Of a stretch of DNA of 64,000 nt, positions 3 through 11,123 are shown in pieces. Source of the DNA: a phage. The notes beneath the pieces were generated by a model that saw nothing but the letters and a program-made list of their open reading frames with translations, was not told where the DNA came from and made no database searches. Numbering within the stretch: the stretch's first letter is position 1; each line of letters opens with the position of its first letter. The stretch lies in sequence record PZ534515.1; one strand, 5' to 3'. Made by a program: the position numbers and the translations under genes.

Positions 3-5449
<5,447 letters not shown>

Positions 5450-5451
5450 TA

Positions 5452-6600
5452 ATGGCAGTAGGTGAAATTCAAATTAGTGCCTTGCCTCAAGCAGCCTTAC
5501 CAATTGACCTTAGTGATATCTTCCATCTTAAGCAGGGTATTGAGGATAAGAGATGTACTCTTGAGCAATTACTTGCTCCACACTCAAGCCTAAGAAATAA
5601 CCCTCATGGTGTTACTAAAACACAAATTGGTTTAGATAATGTTATTAATGCTCTTCAGTTAGTTGCTGCAAATAACTTATCAGATATTGTTAATGTAGCT
5701 GAGGCAAGAAAAAATCTACAGATTATGTCTTCAGAAGAGGTTAATAGTCTTATTCAACAGCATATTAATGACAAGAGCAACCCACACAATACAACTAAGG
5801 CGCAGGTTGGTTTAAGTAATGTCCAGAACTGGACAACATCTAACCTTTATAATGAAGATGCAGATAAGTATGCTACAGCAAGAGCAGTAAATAACTTGTA
5901 CAAGGCTGTTCAGGCTTCTTATCCAGTAGGTACTATCCATCTCTCTATGAATCCTGCAAACCCCTCTACATATTTAATTTGTGGAGGTACTTGGGAGTTA
6001 GTCTCAAAAGGGAGAGCACTTGTAGGTTATGATAGTGATTCTAGGCCAGTTGGTTCAACGTTTGGTTCACAGACTACTGCACTGACGGTTAATAACATCC
6101 CTGCACATACCCACTCAGTGTACGTCACTGGTGGTGGTCACACTCATGGTGCAACGGCCTCTATCAGTGCTTTTGATTATGGCACTAAAGGTACTACAAC
6201 GTTTGACTACGGAACCAAGACCGTATCTACTTATGACTATGGCAACAGAACAACAAGTGCTGCTGGCTTAACACAAACAACATTCATTAACCGTGGCTAT
6301 GCTGATGGTGGCTGGAGAGGTTTATCGGTTGAGGGGGCAAGCTATGACCCAAGAGCTACGTTGACAACAGCTAACAACCACACTCACTCTGTAGCAATTG
6401 GTGCGCATAATCATACGGTTGGTATTGGTGCTCACAGTCATACTGTTGCAATTGGTTCCCACAACCACTCAGCAACAGTAACAGTAACCGGAGCAGGTGA
6501 ACATTCTCACTCTGGCACAACTGGTCCAACTGGTTCTGGTCAAGCATTTAGTGTTGAACAGCCATCCTTCGTATTGTATGTATGGCAGAGAACAGCTTAA
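5452..6600 (+). CDS. tail fibre protein with His-x-His repeat tip
   Basis: Repeated TKxQxGLxNV fibre-repeat motifs and C-terminal HTHS/HNHT/HSHT repeats; C-terminus similar to that of the next gene. Confidence 0.65.
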   Translation: MAVGEIQISALPQAALPIDLSDIFHLKQGIEDKRCTLEQLLAPHSSLRNNPHGVTKTQIGLDNVINALQLVAANNLSDIVNVAEARKNLQIMSSEEVNSLIQQHINDKSNPHNTTKAQVGLSNVQNWTTSNLYNEDADKYATARAVNNLYKAVQASYPVGTIHLSMNPANPSTYLICGGTWELVSKGRALVGYDSDSRPVGSTFGSQTTALTVNNIPAHTHSVYVTGGGHTHGATASISAFDYGTKGTTTFDYGTKTVSTYDYGNRTTSAAGLTQTTFINRGYADGGWRGLSVEGASYDPRATLTTANNHTHSVAIGAHNHTVGIGAHSHTVAIGSHNHSATVTVTGAGEHSHSGTTGPTGSGQAFSVEQPSFVLYVWQRTA

Positions 6601-6608
6601 TTTCTTTA

Positions 6609-6630
6609 CAGGGGCTTTATAGCCCCTTTT
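6609..6630 (+). terminator. intrinsic terminator-like hairpin
   Basis: ggggct-ttata-agcccc followed by tttt. Confidence 0.5.
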
Positions 6631-6646
6631 AAGAGGAAAATTTATA

Positions 6647-8995
6647 ATGGCAGATTACAAGTTGAGTGAATTAAACTCAATCGACACAATCCGTTCAGAC
6701 GACCTTCTTCATGTCAGGGTTAAAAAGAGACCTGAAATGTTAGGTGATGAAGACCGTCGAATGACCTATCAAGACTTCTTAGCATCTTTTAAACTTGAGA
6801 GATTTGTTCAGATTGCTGGCAGTACTATGACTGGTGACTTAGGTATTGTTAAGTTACTTTATGGTGGTAAGGCAGTATTTGACCCTACAGACTCTTCTGA
6901 GATTACTATGGGGGATGTTTTAAAGACTTTTAAAATCAATGCAAACGGTCTTAAACTAACTATTGCAGATGCTTCAAGGTCTGCAACTGTTTATCATACT
7001 CTGAATAAGCCAAGCCCTAATGAACTTGGGATGAGAACTAATGAAGAGAATGATGCAAGATATGCAAGACTTGCTGTTACAAACTCATTCCAAGCTAAAC
7101 AGAGTGTCGTAGCAAATGGTGAGCAGTTGACACTGAAGACCCCTGCGGGTGCAAGTGAGGCATACTCCGCTATTGTAGGTCGAAATGCCAATAATGATAA
7201 AACTTGGGCTGTTGGGAATCTAACTCAAGGAAGTCTTGATGTTCATCTCGAAAACAGTAGAGGTTCAAGAATCACTCTAGGTGCAATTGTGTCTGTTAAT
7301 AAGGCTCTCGCTATTACTGGACAGGTTCAACCTTCTGACTTCTCTAACTTAGATGCTAGATACTTCACTCAGACAGCAGCTAATCAGAGATTTGCACAGT
7401 TAACTGCTAATAATACTTTTAGTGGTTTAAATACATTCAGCAACGCTGTTAACATTAACTCTAATGCTGCTGCTATCATGCTGCAAAATAAATCTGCAAA
7501 TGAATCTTTATTCATCCTAGCAAAAGACAGTGAAAATAATAACTTGTGGTATATTGGTCAGGGTAGTGCAAGCTATGGTATCACATTACACGATTACAAG
7601 AACGACACCACGATGGTCTTAGACTCGTCTGGTGCTACATTCAACAAGCCTGTAAAAATCACTGGTCAAGTTCAACCTTCAGATTGGGCTAACATTGATT
7701 CAAGGTATGTTCCGAGTTCTCTGACAAGAGTTCTTGCAAGGACTGATTCAGCTAATACTTTCACTAAAGCACAGATTATCTATGCTGGCAGCGACAACCC
7801 TTTTAGACTACAGACAACGGTACAAGACTCTGGAATCTACATGTCTGCACATAATGCTGATGGGAACAGGAGATGGTGGTTGGGTATTGGTGGTGCTGGT
7901 CAAAACACAGTGGCACTTACCAATGATGTAACAAGAAAGTCAATCAATCTTAGTACTAATTTAGATGTGAATACACATGTGAATATTGTTGGGCAAGTAA
8001 GACCAAGTGATTTCTCTAACTTAGATGCTAGATACTTCACTCAGACAGCAGCTAACTCTAGATTTATGCTTGCTGGTGCAACTGGTGCATACACCTCAAC
8101 AGATTGGAATGCTGTTCCTTGGAACGCTAAATCTGGTCTGTATGACGTTCTTGTTGGTGGTGGTTCACAGATGATTCTGCACCTATATCAAGCACAAGGC
8201 TCATGCCCTTCTGCACAGTTGCGTTTCAACTATAAGAATGGTGGTATGTACTACAGGTCTTCAAGAGACGCATTTGGCTTCGAAGTAGATTGGTCTAAGA
8301 TTTACACAGAGGCTCAGAAACCAACCCCTTCAGAGATTGGTGCATACACTAAAACTGAAACTGACCAGAAGATTGCACAGGCAGTAAGTGACTCTACAGA
8401 CCTTAATAAAATCTATCCAGTGGGTATTGTGACATGGTTTAACAGTAATGTTGACCCTAATACAGCACTGCCTGGTCTAACTTGGACGTATCTGAACAAC
8501 GGTGTTGGTAGAACTATCAGAATTGCAGCAGCAAACGGTTCAGATGTTGCTACAACAGGTGGTTCAGATTCTGTGACGTTAGCTGTTGGTAACTTACCTT
8601 CACACACGCACAGTTTTTCTGCGACTACCTCATCGTTTGACTACGGAACAAAAAACACTAACACGACTGGTGCTCACACACACTCTGTAAGTGGCTCTAC
8701 TTCATCTGCTGGTCACCACAACCACGCTATCTCGTGGATTGGTCAGAACTCTACACACTATTCTGGTGGTGGTGGTGGTAGAATCGGTACAGGTCCGGGT
8801 TACACTGATGGGGGTGGTGACCACACCCACTCTGTAAGTGGTACTGCTGCTTCTGCTGGTAACCATGCTCACAGTGTTGGTATTGGTGCTCACAGCCACA
8901 CAGTAAGTGGTAACACTGGTGGTACAGGTTCTGGTTCAGCATTTAGTGTTACTAACCAATTCTACAAGTTAATGGCTTGGGTGAGAACTGCTTAA
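6647..8995 (+). CDS. large tail fibre protein with internal repeats and His-x-His tip
   Basis: 782 aa; three copies of the QVxPSDxxNxDxRY module; Gly-rich HxH C-terminal region like T4 distal fibre tips. Confidence 0.7.
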   Translation: MADYKLSELNSIDTIRSDDLLHVRVKKRPEMLGDEDRRMTYQDFLASFKLERFVQIAGSTMTGDLGIVKLLYGGKAVFDPTDSSEITMGDVLKTFKINANGLKLTIADASRSATVYHTLNKPSPNELGMRTNEENDARYARLAVTNSFQAKQSVVANGEQLTLKTPAGASEAYSAIVGRNANNDKTWAVGNLTQGSLDVHLENSRGSRITLGAIVSVNKALAITGQVQPSDFSNLDARYFTQTAANQRFAQLTANNTFSGLNTFSNAVNINSNAAAIMLQNKSANESLFILAKDSENNNLWYIGQGSASYGITLHDYKNDTTMVLDSSGATFNKPVKITGQVQPSDWANIDSRYVPSSLTRVLARTDSANTFTKAQIIYAGSDNPFRLQTTVQDSGIYMSAHNADGNRRWWLGIGGAGQNTVALTNDVTRKSINLSTNLDVNTHVNIVGQVRPSDFSNLDARYFTQTAANSRFMLAGATGAYTSTDWNAVPWNAKSGLYDVLVGGGSQMILHLYQAQGSCPSAQLRFNYKNGGMYYRSSRDAFGFEVDWSKIYTEAQKPTPSEIGAYTKTETDQKIAQAVSDSTDLNKIYPVGIVTWFNSNVDPNTALPGLTWTYLNNGVGRTIRIAAANGSDVATTGGSDSVTLAVGNLPSHTHSFSATTSSFDYGTKNTNTTGAHTHSVSGSTSSAGHHNHAISWIGQNSTHYSGGGGGRIGTGPGYTDGGGDHTHSVSGTAASAGNHAHSVGIGAHSHTVSGNTGGTGSGSAFSVTNQFYKLMAWVRTA

Positions 8996-9074: not shown

Positions 9075-9272
9075 ATGCCTACAATCCTAGCAATTCTTCT
9101 AAAAAATCTAGGTAGTTTCTTCTGGAAACTCATTTTATCCCTTCTAAGTGAATACATGATTGAGAAAGTGTTCTTTAGGCTTGCAAGATACCTTGCGAGT
9201 AAAACAGACACACCTATTGATGATGAGTTCGTAGATAACTTAGAAAAAGCTTTTAAGGGGGAGAATAAATGA
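9075..9272 (+). CDS. small hydrophobic protein (possible holin-like or membrane protein)
   Basis: 65 aa, hydrophobic N-terminus. Confidence 0.35.
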   Translation: MPTILAILLKNLGSFFWKLILSLLSEYMIEKVFFRLARYLASKTDTPIDDEFVDNLEKAFKGENK

Positions 9273-9640
9273 AGTGGCTAGAGGAAGCTTTTAAAAATAA
9301 TATTGGTGCAATTGTAGTTGGTATTTTTAGTGTTATTGGGATGTATACCACCATGCAAGTCTCGGATGGTAAGCAAGAAGTGTCTATCACAACAAAGTTA
9401 CAGCAGTTAGATAATTATTCCAAAAGTAATTATTCAGCTATTCGTGATTTACAGTCTGATATGAGGCTGCTTCAGCTAGGGATGGAGAACCAGAAAGTCC
9501 AGTTAGAGAATGTTAAGGGAGAGAACGCAAAACTTACTAAGACTCTTGATAAATTCTCTGATAGTGTGAACAATCTGGCTCAGTCAGTATCAGCCCTCCA
9601 AGCTATTACTGAAAAGAACACAAAGAATACTGAAAAGTAA
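9269..9640 (+). CDS. membrane-anchored coiled-coil protein
   Basis: N-terminal TM-like segment IGAIVVGIFSVIGMY then heptad-rich region; ATGA overlap with upstream ORF. Confidence 0.45.
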   Translation: MKWLEEAFKNNIGAIVVGIFSVIGMYTTMQVSDGKQEVSITTKLQQLDNYSKSNYSAIRDLQSDMRLLQLGMENQKVQLENVKGENAKLTKTLDKFSDSVNNLAQSVSALQAITEKNTKNTEK

Positions 9641-9645
9641 AGTTT

Positions 9646-9676
9646 AAGGCTCCTTCTTACGGGAGCCTTTTTTGTT
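9646..9676. terminator. bidirectional terminator between convergent operons
   Basis: aaggctcc-ttcttacg-ggagcctt followed by tttttg; sits between the + gene ending 9640 and the - gene ending 9677. Confidence 0.6.
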
Positions 9677-10576
9677 TTATTTACCTACTGACAAAGGTGC
9701 TTCAATCTTCCCTGCATGTTGGTAGTTGCTAATACCACCAATAAAGTCACTTGCAGTAAGATGTTTCAGGTCACTTAAAGTATTAAGTTGTAAACCAATC
9801 TCAAAAGTAGGTGCATGGAACTCTTCATTGCTCATCAGTTCATAAACCTGCTTCATATGGTTCTGATAAATCTGAGTATCTCCAAAGACACCTATCAAAT
9901 ATCGTGGAGTGTATCCAGTCATCTTACAAAGAACTTCCAGAATAAAACCATAAGACGCAATGTTAAAGGGAAGTCCTAGAAAGGTGTCTACAGAACGCTG
10001 ATACCATTGCAAATCTACTTCACCCTCGTTAGTGATATAAATCTGAAACAGGACATGACAAGGTGCTAAAGCCATTGAGTTTGCTGCAATATCTGCTGCA
10101 TTCCAAGCATTAACAAGCATGTAACGGTCTGTGATATCACCCTTCATCTTCGTTACTAAAGTCTCTAGCTGGTCTACAACACAACCATTATGACCTTCAA
10201 AGTTTCTCCACTGAACTCCGTAGATTCTTCCACCTGCATCCTCTAACCAATCCTGTTCAGAAGAATAATTAGAGCTTAACCAGCGTTTGAAATCATCTGA
10301 CCAGATAGTCCAGCGTTCTCCGTCATTTTCACCCCAAGTACGGTAACGAAGTTCACCCAGTTTATTCTCACCGTTCAGGAACCATAAAGCTTCTCCAATA
10401 ACTTGCCGTGTAAACACCTGTTTAGATGTTAAGAGTGGGAAACCAGTTCGCATATCAAAACGAAACTGAGGTGGAGCAAATGCAGAAATAACATCCCCAG
10501 TTCGTGTAGTGCGCAGTTCACCAACTGATAAAACATGGTTCAGGATATTTTTGTAACTTGTATCTGCTTGTGACAT
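9677..10576 (-). CDS. thyA: thymidylate synthase
   Basis: Catalytic LAPCH motif, RTGxxxxS and FPLLTSK motifs; sits immediately after DHFR as in T4 frd-td. Confidence 0.85.
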   Translation of the reverse strand: MSQADTSYKNILNHVLSVGELRTTRTGDVISAFAPPQFRFDMRTGFPLLTSKQVFTRQVIGEALWFLNGENKLGELRYRTWGENDGERWTIWSDDFKRWLSSNYSSEQDWLEDAGGRIYGVQWRNFEGHNGCVVDQLETLVTKMKGDITDRYMLVNAWNAADIAANSMALAPCHVLFQIYITNEGEVDLQWYQRSVDTFLGLPFNIASYGFILEVLCKMTGYTPRYLIGVFGDTQIYQNHMKQVYELMSNEEFHAPTFEIGLQLNTLSDLKHLTASDFIGGISNYQHAGKIEAPLSVGK

Positions 10577-10577
10577 A

Positions 10578-11123
10578 TCAAAAGTGTCCTTTTACTTGTG
10601 GAACATAAATTTCAAAAGTTGCTTTACCATCCTCTGATGGTTTTGACTGTACCTTTGTAAATACACGGTTATCATACAACTTCTCAAAGAAGTTTTCAAA
10701 AGGTAAATGCACAGTGACCTCTTCAGTAACTTTATGGAAAACTGTATGGAACACTACACCAGCATACGGTAAAGCATTGACAAGGACACCTGCACCACCA
10801 ATTACAAAGACATCTTCATCAATAGAGCTATCAAGATACTTCAAAAATGCTCCAAATGACTCTTTACTGGCTTTAGCATACATTACATCATCTTTGCCAA
10901 AGTCTATGCCTAAGTATGGTACAGAATTTGTTAAGATGAGGTTTGCACGTTCTGGTAAAGGTTTACTCCCCAGAGTCTTGAAAGTTTCGTTACCCATCAC
11001 TACTAAGTTGTTTTTAGTGAGTCTCTTAAACTCTTGCATGTCCTGTTTATGTCGAGGCCACGGCATACCAGTTGGAGTACCAAACTCACCATTTTCACCA
11101 CTTGCAAAGATTAGTTTAATCAT
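10578..11123 (-). CDS. frd: dihydrofolate reductase
   Basis: DHFR N-terminal pattern (MIKLIFA...GMPW...VVMGNETF...RPLPER.NLILT); stop lies 1 nt before thyA start. Confidence 0.85.
   Translation of the reverse strand: MIKLIFASGENGEFGTPTGMPWPRHKQDMQEFKRLTKNNLVVMGNETFKTLGSKPLPERANLILTNSVPYLGIDFGKDDVMYAKASKESFGAFLKYLDSSIDEDVFVIGGAGVLVNALPYAGVVFHTVFHKVTEEVTVHLPFENFFEKLYDNRVFTKVQSKPSEDGKATFEIYVPQVKGHF

Follow-up and report, generated by a model that had tools for sequence, protein, structure and literature searches.

The question raised by positions 5452–8995 of the window, a 64,000-nt stretch of phage DNA (sequence record PZ534515.1), is whether the repeated segments within and between two adjacent tail fibre genes record an exchange of parts by recombination or only a periodicity of the fold. 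An earlier note had favoured the former, proposing modular fibres with a triplicated internal domain, similar tips in both genes, and duplications that act as a substrate for recombination. In this study, recombination was inferred from identity profiles and junction mapping against a set of related phages that supplied 31 long-fibre genes, all intact, and 33 short-fibre genes. The 31 long-fibre relatives comprised 28 with a Felixounavirus backbone and three divergent loci (L006, L007, and L014), and reading frames were intact in 31 of the 33 related loci. Many of these loci were IMG/VR contigs, several of them from metagenome 3300045988. Statements about structure are drawn from sequence homology and from the published model of phage Bas63 (PMC12609058).

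Gene identity and genomic context

Both fibre genes announced by the earlier note were present in the ORF list, one spanning 5452–6600 (382 aa, ending in ...GQAFSVEQPSFVLYVWQRTA) and the other 6647–8995 (782 aa, ending in ...GSAFSVTNQFYKLMAWVRTA); they and the fibre features described below lie on the + strand. Judged by orthology and synteny with bas63_0026 and bas63_0027, respectively, the first gene is the short tail fibre (orthologue of gp26 of Felixounavirus Bas63, Escherichia phage JohannRWettstein) and the second is the long tail fibre (orthologue of Bas63 gp27). The short fibre had 97–100% amino acid identity to Bas63 per segment and matched phrog_2097 (tail fiber, E 7e-129), and the long one matched phrog_4277 over its full length. 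The gene order is common to Bas63 and runs through baseplate J, wedge, a 100-aa platform protein, short fibre, and long fibre, followed by thyA and dhfr on the other strand, so that orthology and conserved position beside baseplate genes together mark the pair as Felixounavirus short and long side fibres. On the same kind of evidence, the window phage is a Felixounavirus, i.e., a Felix-O1-like E. coli myophage, and its backbone was 91–99% identical to those of its relatives. The genes themselves are ordinary. Their genus is well sampled, and the side-fibre architecture appeared in print in 2025; in the Bas63 cryo-EM paper, each fibre has a T4-gp37-like tip (collar, HxH needle, and head), and helical linkers join the repeated domains of a shaft (PMC12609058).

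Fibre tips

The short-fibre shaft carried two NPHxxTKxQ[IV]GLxNVxN helix-turn motifs (5599–5649 and 5779–5829, found by motif search), and was followed by a Gp10_C-like collar at 5911–6231 (PF21939, E 1.6e-17, aa 154–260), which also matched the T4 gp10 chains 2FKK and 5HX2. The needle (6106–6510) held seven HxH motifs and, within a match to the T4 gp37 tip (2XGF, E 8.4e-15, aa 146–352), enclosed a variable head cassette between motifs 2 and 3 (~6148–6378), which fell to 11–24% amino acid identity in 23 of 33 related short fibres. The C-terminus (GSGQAFSVEQPSF...WQRTA, 6502–6597) was conserved at 72–100% identity among relatives and was collinear with that of the long fibre.

In the long fibre, the collar (aa 586–650, 8402–8596) was conserved, with 94–100% amino acid identity in the 28 relatives and 63–69% in L006, L007, and L014. 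The gp10/gp12-type collar signature PF21939 was weak here (E 4e-4, 21.7 bits, under the 27-bit cutoff), in contrast to its strong match in the short fibre. The needle (8597–8881) had six HxH motifs, one of them an HHNH, and matched 2XGF at aa 650–761 (E 1.8e-17). Its variable head lay between motifs 3 and 4 (~8726–8821) and matched L002 at 100% identity and phage dune at 99.5%. A His box (GIGAHSHTVSGNT, 8879–8917) matched the Pfam Phage_fiber repeat (PF03335, E 9.5e-5), and the C-terminus (8882–8992), with 95–100% amino acid identity in the 28 relatives and 84–86% in the three divergent loci, is predicted to return towards the collar, following the chain topology of 2XGF and Bas63 (PMC12609058).

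The HxH counts equal those reported for Bas63, and the motifs are arranged around a central His-free segment as 2 + 5 in the short and 3 + 3 in the long fibre. The similarity of the HxH-rich tips and C-termini that had been noticed in the letters was borne out: the two tips were 33% identical over 230 aa (E 8e-26), with collinear short nucleotide boxes common to both, namely an FDYGTK box, a GIGAHSHTV His box, and a GSGxAFSV box. As the longest exact nucleotide identity between them was 20 nt (short fibre 6418 versus the long-fibre His box), no recent exchange is visible between the window's own two genes. Given the homology of both tips to 2XGF, each fibre ends in a T4-gp37-type receptor-binding tip, in which the chain would run from the collar through a needle to a small head and back to the collar. 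By homology with T4 gp37, the needle is presumably trimeric, with the HxH motifs facing inward and binding iron. Such a hairpin topology accounts for the pattern seen in the sequence, a variable head in the middle of the tip between conserved outgoing and returning needle strands (with the FDYGTK box and the His boxes), and a C-terminus that is conserved as well.

Shaft repeats and linkers

The long fibre begins with a conserved N-terminal region (aa 1–120, 6647–7006), which in Bas63 binds the baseplate (PMC12609058) and showed 93–100% amino acid identity in the 28 relatives with a Felixounavirus backbone, as against 74–84% in L006, L007, and L014. The shaft that follows gave three domain matches to PF20744 (gp37_trimer; E 8.5e-51 for the whole protein, 170.4 bits versus a gathering cutoff of 21.7), overlapping the cassettes R0 (aa 131–222, 7037–7312; match at aa 160–235), R1 (aa 251–337, 7397–7657; match at aa 277–349), and R2 (aa 366–446, 7742–7984; match at aa 384–475). 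Each of these domains ended in the linker motif GQVxPSD[FW]xN[LI]DxRY, with GQVxPSD starting at nt 7319, 7664, and 7991 (aa 225, 340, and 449); the linkers were delimited as linker 1 (GQVQPSDFSNLDARYFTQTAANQRFA, 7319–7396), linker 2 (GQVQPSDWANIDSRY..., 7664–7741), and linker 3 (GQVRPSDFSNLDARYFTQTAANSRFM, 7991–8068). Next comes a Mu S-like domain (8069–8401) assigned to Pfam gp37_C (PF12604, E 3.6e-17, aa 486–584; 62.7 bits versus a cutoff of 22.5) and closed by a fourth linker-like motif, KPTPSEIGAYTKTETDQKIA, from 8318. The array as a whole is flanked by two linker-like motifs, KPSPNELG at 7007 and the one at 8318 (KPTPSEIG). The shaft would be made of beta-rich domains (three PF20744 and one Mu-S-like gp37_C), each closed by a conserved, probably helical linker of ~26 aa.

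A self-BLASTP of the whole long fibre returned the identity match only, and the repeats emerged from piecewise comparison of excised segments. In a self repeat search, 7270–7393 and 7942–8065 were 73% identical over 124 nt; over 26 codons, linker copies 1 and 3 were 79% identical in nucleotides and 88% in amino acids, and contained an exact 44-nt direct repeat (7340–7383 = 8012–8055). The repeat that the earlier note placed at 7321–7400 and 7990–8060 is therefore real, but its description as near-identical was somewhat generous. A third, diverged copy, noted near 7670, was found as linker 2 (47% nucleotide and 42% amino acid identity), and the domain described as triplicated does correspond to the three PF20744 matches, a count that nevertheless falls short of the five shaft domains of the Bas63 orthologue (PMC12609058).

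The number of repeats was constant in 31/31 relatives, and no detected linker was shifted or duplicated; by regular expression, the linker motif was found at ~aa 225, 340, and 449 in 22 of 31 relatives, and at one or two of these places in the other nine. Published data agree, with an unvarying repeat number among the 18 species examined (PMC12609058). Recombination between the 44-nt repeats is expected to delete or duplicate 672 nt in frame, and no such variant occurred in the 31 relatives. The lack of repeat-number variants implies that out-of-register events altering copy number are rare or not viable. Long fibres of ~845 aa were considered as extra-repeat variants and rejected, their length being accounted for by a different, larger domain at shaft position 5.

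Mosaicism and recombination junctions

An invariant repeat number is what would be seen if the repeats were structural periodicity only, kept by selection on folding, with variation arising by point mutation under diversifying selection. The same reading can draw on the linkers being structural elements in Bas63, and on the HxH motifs binding metal and having a structural role in T4 gp37 (2XGF). It is at odds with how the variation is distributed. Compared with relatives, domain bodies were bimodal in identity, either near-identical (98–100% nt) or at 25–60% nt, against a backbone of 91–99%, and the fibre segments assorted independently among relatives, which upholds the proposed modularity.

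The window long fibre is chimeric; its three junctions were mapped at nucleotide resolution, one within each linker (~7334–7395, ~7654–7697, and ~8012–8026). Its R0 is of heid/REP12/L001 type (98–100% nucleotide identity to L030, L029, and L001; 27–58% to Bas63), R1 of Bas63 type (85–97% to L027; 40–65% to heid), and R2 of REP12 type (87–98% to L029; ~40–60% to all others); the Mu-S-like domain is its own, and the head is of dune/L002 type. Among GenBank phages, R2 was confined to REP8-12 (95%) and to Shigella phages ESh19/21/22 and Citrobacter phage KMM2 (86%), and the nearest GenBank DNA to 8050–8300 was that of CHB7 (88.8%). In linker 3, the window is identical to REP12 up to ~8025 and then follows L006/heid. 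The conserved repeated segments, which had been proposed as sites of recombination, are thus where the junctions of this chimera lie. At shaft position 5, three unrelated domains alternate among relatives between conserved joints, and two of the alternatives had no Pfam match and no significant PDB match. The linkers would stay similar in DNA and be the places where relatives infecting the same cell cross over by homologous recombination; crossovers at conserved joints make each domain body an exchangeable cassette.

The 44-nt exact repeat admits a further reading, that of a functional element at the nucleotide level (an RNA or regulatory signal, or a nuclease target) instead of a trace of recombination. 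In its favour, the 14 codons are perfectly kept while flanking identical amino acids differ in codons. Identity at synonymous sites is also counted for the recombination model: with the peptide fixed, 14 identical codons would arise by chance with a probability of ~7e-6, and the identical-codon fraction between the linker copies was 0.68 versus 0.45 expected. Against a functional element, the place and the length (11–49 nt) of the exact match between linkers 1 and 3 vary among relatives, and the window's 44-mer was absent from all 31 of them. There was no promoter- or terminator-like site at the 44-mer, and counts of such signals inside the genes were not above shuffled expectation. Furthermore, the right-hand copy spans the junction mapped in linker 3, which fits an origin by recombination, so we give the functional-element reading the least credence of all those considered here.

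The mosaic might also have been created by mis-assembly across the repeated linkers, from short reads of mixed lysates or metagenomes. This has to be weighed for a set with many IMG/VR loci, several from a single metagenome, and repeats of 35–49 nt could mislead assemblers of mixed populations. The same cassette combinations, however, recur in genomes of phages that various laboratories isolated independently (REP8-12, heid, fjerdesal, Bas63, pinkbiff, and CL1), the junction-bearing linkers are shorter than a typical read, and the frames are almost always intact, making an assembly artefact very improbable.

Out-of-register transfers

Joints that are repeated both within a gene and between the two genes allow occasional out-of-register recombination, by which a cassette would be shifted to another shaft position or a head copied from one fibre to the other. 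Both outcomes were found among relatives. One shaft cassette sits at R0 in pinkbiff/L004 and at R2 in L016 (94% identity over 290 nt); two cassette families occupy differing shaft positions, and cassette clusters otherwise differ by position. In L023, the short and long fibre genes have a head segment in common (91% over 200 nt, 41 identical residues), which begins at the FDYGTK box and reaches into the returning needle strand, stopping a little short of the His boxes (short fibre aa 250–316, long fibre aa 664–730); exchange of heads between short and long fibre was also seen in L005 and L018. For the window's cassettes, the best amino acid identity to a cassette at another position was 39%.

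The idea of duplication as a substrate for recombination therefore holds for the cross-position and cross-gene transfers in relatives, but most exchanges were in register between different phages, for which conserved joints are required and intragenic duplication is not. Concerning structural periodicity as the sole cause of the repeats, one cassette at two positions with 94% nucleotide identity, unrelated domains alternating at one position, switches within a few tens of bases inside linkers, and an exact 44-nt match covering all synonymous sites add to the bimodal identities and independent assortment against it. That reading is already largely refuted and keeps a small residual probability, if a somewhat larger one than mis-assembly. 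The earlier note had named repeats without variation among relatives as the outcome that would count against it, and the relatives do vary. Taken together, the profiles and junctions make it probable (roughly 0.85) that these fibres are built of cassettes exchanged at conserved joints between phages, between shaft positions, and between both genes.

Comparison with known fibre systems

The closest counterparts are Bas63 gp26/gp27 (same genus, gene order, and shaft-plus-tip architecture, with seven and six HxH motifs including an HHxH) and gp52/gp53 of Shigella phage Sf14. The Bas63 long fibre differs in its cassettes, with amino acid identities of 46% in R0, 31% in R2, and 58% in the Mu-S-like domain, as compared with 84% in R1 and 91–94% in the head. 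Published work on Bas63 reports variability, and junctions, cross-position moves, or head sharing between short and long fibres were not mapped there (PMC12609058). This is a known kind of system, and the new detail is modest.

Both window tips are homologous to the T4 gp37 tip (2XGF), with HxH motifs on either side of a variable head. In contrast to the gp34–37 assembly of T4, each window fibre is one short polypeptide with a shorter needle, and paralogous tips are encoded in neighbouring genes; unlike in the T4-type system, there is no adjacent gp38-like adhesin/chaperone gene. Reportedly, a 'His box' recombination model was put forward for T-even phages by Tetart et al. in 1996 and 1998; the reference list of PMC9603124 includes the earlier of the two papers. 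In the window and its relatives, conserved boxes likewise bound the exchanged segments: junctions lie in three linkers, the L023 head exchange is bounded by boxes, and the long-fibre His box matches Phage_fiber.

With respect to the Mu tail fibre S/S' (8JU3), long-fibre aa 475–577 align to Mu S residues 326–427 (E 8.7e-29). The Mu-like domain of the window is internal and followed by a T4-type tip, and relatives may hold unrelated domains at the same position; in further contrast to Mu, an invertible segment and a Mu-type chaperone gene are both absent (Sf14 literature). The shaft domains and triple-helix linkers have been described as structurally similar to the T4 gp34 rod (5NXH) (PMC12609058), and the window long fibre had no sequence match to 5NXH at E ≤ 0.01. 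A weak match (E 2e-5) linked long-fibre aa 274–346 to the C-terminal chains of the T7 gp17 pyramid domain (4A0T/4A0U).

Significance and host range

The analysis provides a base-resolution map of natural crossovers in the three linkers and at the FDYGTK and His boxes, and indicates that cassettes tolerate moves between shaft positions, both fibre genes, and genera. The mapped joints suggest themselves as natural places to splice when Felix-O1-like phages are engineered for a change in host recognition. They also raise the question of why the shaft domains vary so much, beyond the receptor-binding head.

Bas63 requires an intact LPS core, and the window phage probably uses the LPS core as its receptor, unlike the T4 system with OmpC. 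Head swaps presumably alter LPS-core specificity and host range, in which the shaft cassettes may play a role as well; a Bas63 knockout-screen preprint stated nothing relevant on the conditional essentiality of the fibre genes. A bolder proposal, which we consider unlikely, although less so than any of the alternatives discussed above, is that shaft cassettes are independent surface-glycan-binding modules, so that several features of the host are sensed along the long fibre. If so, a combinatorial host range would result when cassettes are shuffled over three to five positions and between Ounavirinae genera, and the conservation of linker DNA would be maintained because it enables the shuffling.

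The support for host-range switching, as proposed by the earlier note, is a correlation: both window tip heads were almost exclusive to phages isolated on E. coli K-12 derivatives, in a sample with isolation bias, so that the association of tip and host is confounded by sampling and shared ancestry. Short- and long-fibre head types co-occurred (10/10 loci versus 0/21).

Architecture of the two fibres

The fibre locus (5452–8995) belongs to a Felixounavirus, i.e., a Felix-O1-like E. coli myophage; nearly all of its 239 matches in phage records come from Escherichia or Salmonella felixounaviruses, and the best of them, Bas63 (JohannRWettstein), covers only 79% of the query, in three pieces, at 95.7% identity. 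Both genes lie on the plus strand, in the order of bas63_0026 and bas63_0027, and encode a short fibre of 382 aa (5452–6600) and a long fibre of 782 aa (6647–8995). In Bas63, cryo-EM showed these products to form fibres of 430 Å and 630 Å, each ending in a T4-gp37-like tip (collar, HxH needle and head) whose chain doubles back, with 7 and 6 HxH motifs, respectively (PMC12609058); much the same description was given for Sf14, a Mooglevirus (PMC11821841).

The earlier note had described near-identical segments within the long fibre, a diverged third copy near 7670 and HxH repeats in both fibres, and all the features it described were recovered here from motif positions, Pfam, PDB and HxH counts (7 HxH motifs in the short fibre, 6 in the long one). 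The GQVxPSD motif of the linkers that close the three variable shaft cassettes (R0, R1, and R2) starts at nt 7319, 7664, and 7991, with linker 2 (nt 7664) being the diverged copy. Over 26 codons, linkers 1 and 3 agree in 79% of nucleotides and 88% of amino acids, and they share an exact 44-nt match (7340–7383 = 8012–8055), just 5′ of which seven identical residues use mostly different codons in the two copies; the probability of 14 identical codons given the common peptide is about 7e−6. Exact matches of 11–49 nt between linkers 1 and 3, with shifting positions, also occur in many relatives, and the identical-codon fraction across the sample was 0.68 vs. 0.45 expected from codon usage. The 44-nt repeat might also be taken for a DNA-level functional element, which fits the data poorly.

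Pfam placed PF20744 (gp37_trimer) three times in the long fibre (aa 160–235, 277–349, and 384–475), followed by PF12604 (gp37_C, aa 486–584) and the PF03335 His-box repeat (aa 745–757), and found a Gp10_C collar in both proteins, although in the long fibre it was weak and below the cutoff. The tip of T4 gp37 (2XGF) was matched by both tips (E 1.8e−17 for the long fibre, 8.4e−15 for the short one), and an internal domain of the long fibre matched the Mu tail fibre S (8JU3, E 8.7e−29). The two tips are 33% identical, and their common DNA is limited to short collinear boxes, in which exact matches reach 20 nt at most. Two records labelled as Campylobacter phages (e.g., A132, 70.7 kb) share a needle-region stretch of about 45 nt (8656–8701) at 89%; these records may be mislabelled or mixed, or the similarity may simply reflect a conserved His-box stretch.

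Mosaicism among relatives

Thirty-four related loci (26 from IMG/VR and 8 GenBank isolates) provided 31 intact long-fibre and 33 short-fibre genes; in L015 and L022, a frameshift or stop divides the long-fibre gene into two ORFs, which fits the apparently truncated long fibre of the Salmonella phage Si3 (PMC12609058). Where detected, the linker motif lies near aa 225, 340, and 449; 22 of the 31 long fibres showed the full set, no shifted or duplicated motif was seen in any of the 31, and this constant repeat number agrees with the Bas63 paper (PMC12609058). The N-terminus, linkers, collar and last 37 residues are mostly 92–100% conserved in amino acids, with more variation in linkers 2 and 3, while identity falls to 21–60% in the domain bodies, the Mu-S-like domain and the head.

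Pure structural periodicity with divergence in place fits the data poorly, as does an assembly artefact behind the mosaic pattern. The earlier note had called for a comparison with related fibre genes, in which segments proved bimodal in DNA identity to any given relative (near-identical or 25–60%, next to flanking genes at 91–99%), assorted independently and switched within linkers. For instance, R0 (7037–7312) is 98–100% identical to the phages heid and REP12 and the locus L001 vs. 27–58% to Bas63, R1 (7397–7657) is 85–97% identical to Bas63, R2 (7742–7984) matches only REP12 among the relatives (87–98%), and the long-fibre head is identical to that of L002 and 99.5% identical to that of phage dune. 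Base-by-base comparison placed three identity switches, all inside linkers (about 7334–7395, 7654–7697, and 8012–8026), the third of them within the 44-nt repeat. In GenBank, the R2 cassette (7690–7990 region) was found elsewhere only in REP8–12 (95%) and in the Shigella phages ESh19/21/22 and the Citrobacter phage BSwM KMM2 (86%), which suggests that cassettes have been traded with phages infecting other hosts, perhaps members of other Ounavirinae genera. The stretch 8050–8300 has its best match in CHB7 (88.8%).

The position that separates linker 3 from the KPTPS..ETDQKIA joint is occupied in relatives by one of at least three unrelated domains: the Mu-S-like domain, as in the window, a ~170-aa domain (RSTGFNNGN...VQLFEAPQTFDDAPQG; aa ~470–640 in finno, L016, L017, L018, L020, L021, and L025), which accounts for the long fibres of ~845 aa, and a ~100-aa domain (MTRTTNRLDDPSSF...; aa ~470–560 in L002 and L014). 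Neither of the latter two had a Pfam match or a significant PDB match.

Transfer between positions and genes

An all-against-all comparison of 96 cassettes revealed two families that sit at different shaft positions. R0 of pinkbiff and L004 equals R2 of L016 (94.7% in amino acids; 94.1% over 290 nt, gene nt 432–721 vs. 1101–1390), and R0 of Bas63 is 67–75% identical in amino acids to R2 of at least nine relatives (79–81% in nucleotides for the two pairs checked). Between genes, nt 748–947 of the short-fibre gene of locus L023 are 91% identical to nt 1990–2189 of its long-fibre gene (200 nt), including 41 consecutive head residues without a difference, and two other loci (L005 and L018) show the same sharing at 80–81%. 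The common segment extends from the FDYGTK box into the returning needle strand, just 5′ of the His boxes; both kinds of boxes are also common to the two fibre genes of the window.

Cassette exchange via conserved fibre-gene motifs is a long-established principle in T-even phages, as Tétart et al. (1996, 1998) reportedly described; PMC9603124 cites the 1996 paper. The fibres are best read as a cassette-built system of this known kind, in which the joints would be structural elements whose conservation in DNA would also make them crossover sites; since the joints recur, exchange out of register could occasionally have moved cassettes between positions and between both genes. Recombination through fibre-gene repeats, as proposed in the earlier note, is supported by comparative evidence, i.e., linker junctions in the window and cross-position and cross-gene transfers in relatives. 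The window holds a new cassette combination in an already published architecture. Modest additions are the map of junctions and the transfers across positions and genes, of which we found no account in the literature covered, PMC12609058 included.

Head types and host

Owing to the gp37-type hairpin topology, the variable heads (about 6148–6378 and 8726–8821) lie mid-tip, between conserved boxes and the conserved C-terminus. Full-length copies of the short-fibre head are present in 44 GenBank records and of the long-fibre head in 45, and nearly all phages carrying them were isolated on K-12 derivatives. Both head types co-occur perfectly (the same 10 of 31 loci, none of the other 21), although the shaft cassettes in between differ among these 10. 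This pattern, which bears on the heads only and not on the shaft cassettes, suggests joint host selection of both tips or a structured sample, with K-12 isolation and shared ancestry confounding the former. A role in host range is plausible for the heads.

Gene neighbourhood

Synteny with Bas63 holds 5′ of the fibre genes, where the baseplate J gene and a wedge gene come before a gene of 100 aa (5147–5449) directly preceding the short fibre. The 100-aa product (phrog_4141, unknown function; no match in a Pfam search) corresponds to bas63_0025, assigned as the long-fibre platform and counterpart of T4 gp9 (PMC12609058). On the 3′ side, ORFs of 65 and 123 aa (9075–9640) and a terminator-like hairpin (9646–9669) are followed on the opposite strand by thymidylate synthase and dihydrofolate reductase (9677–11123), two genes that are also part of the order common with Bas63; the 123-aa product is annotated as a holin in relatives, but its PHROG family is of unknown function (putative holin). 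The 46-nt gap between the fibre genes contains a 6-bp GC-rich hairpin (6609–6627, AGGGGC-TTTATA-GCCCCT, then TTTTAA), which was not called by a consensus scan for signals; it lies immediately before the long-fibre ribosome-binding site and may act as a weak terminator, an attenuator or an RNA-stability element.
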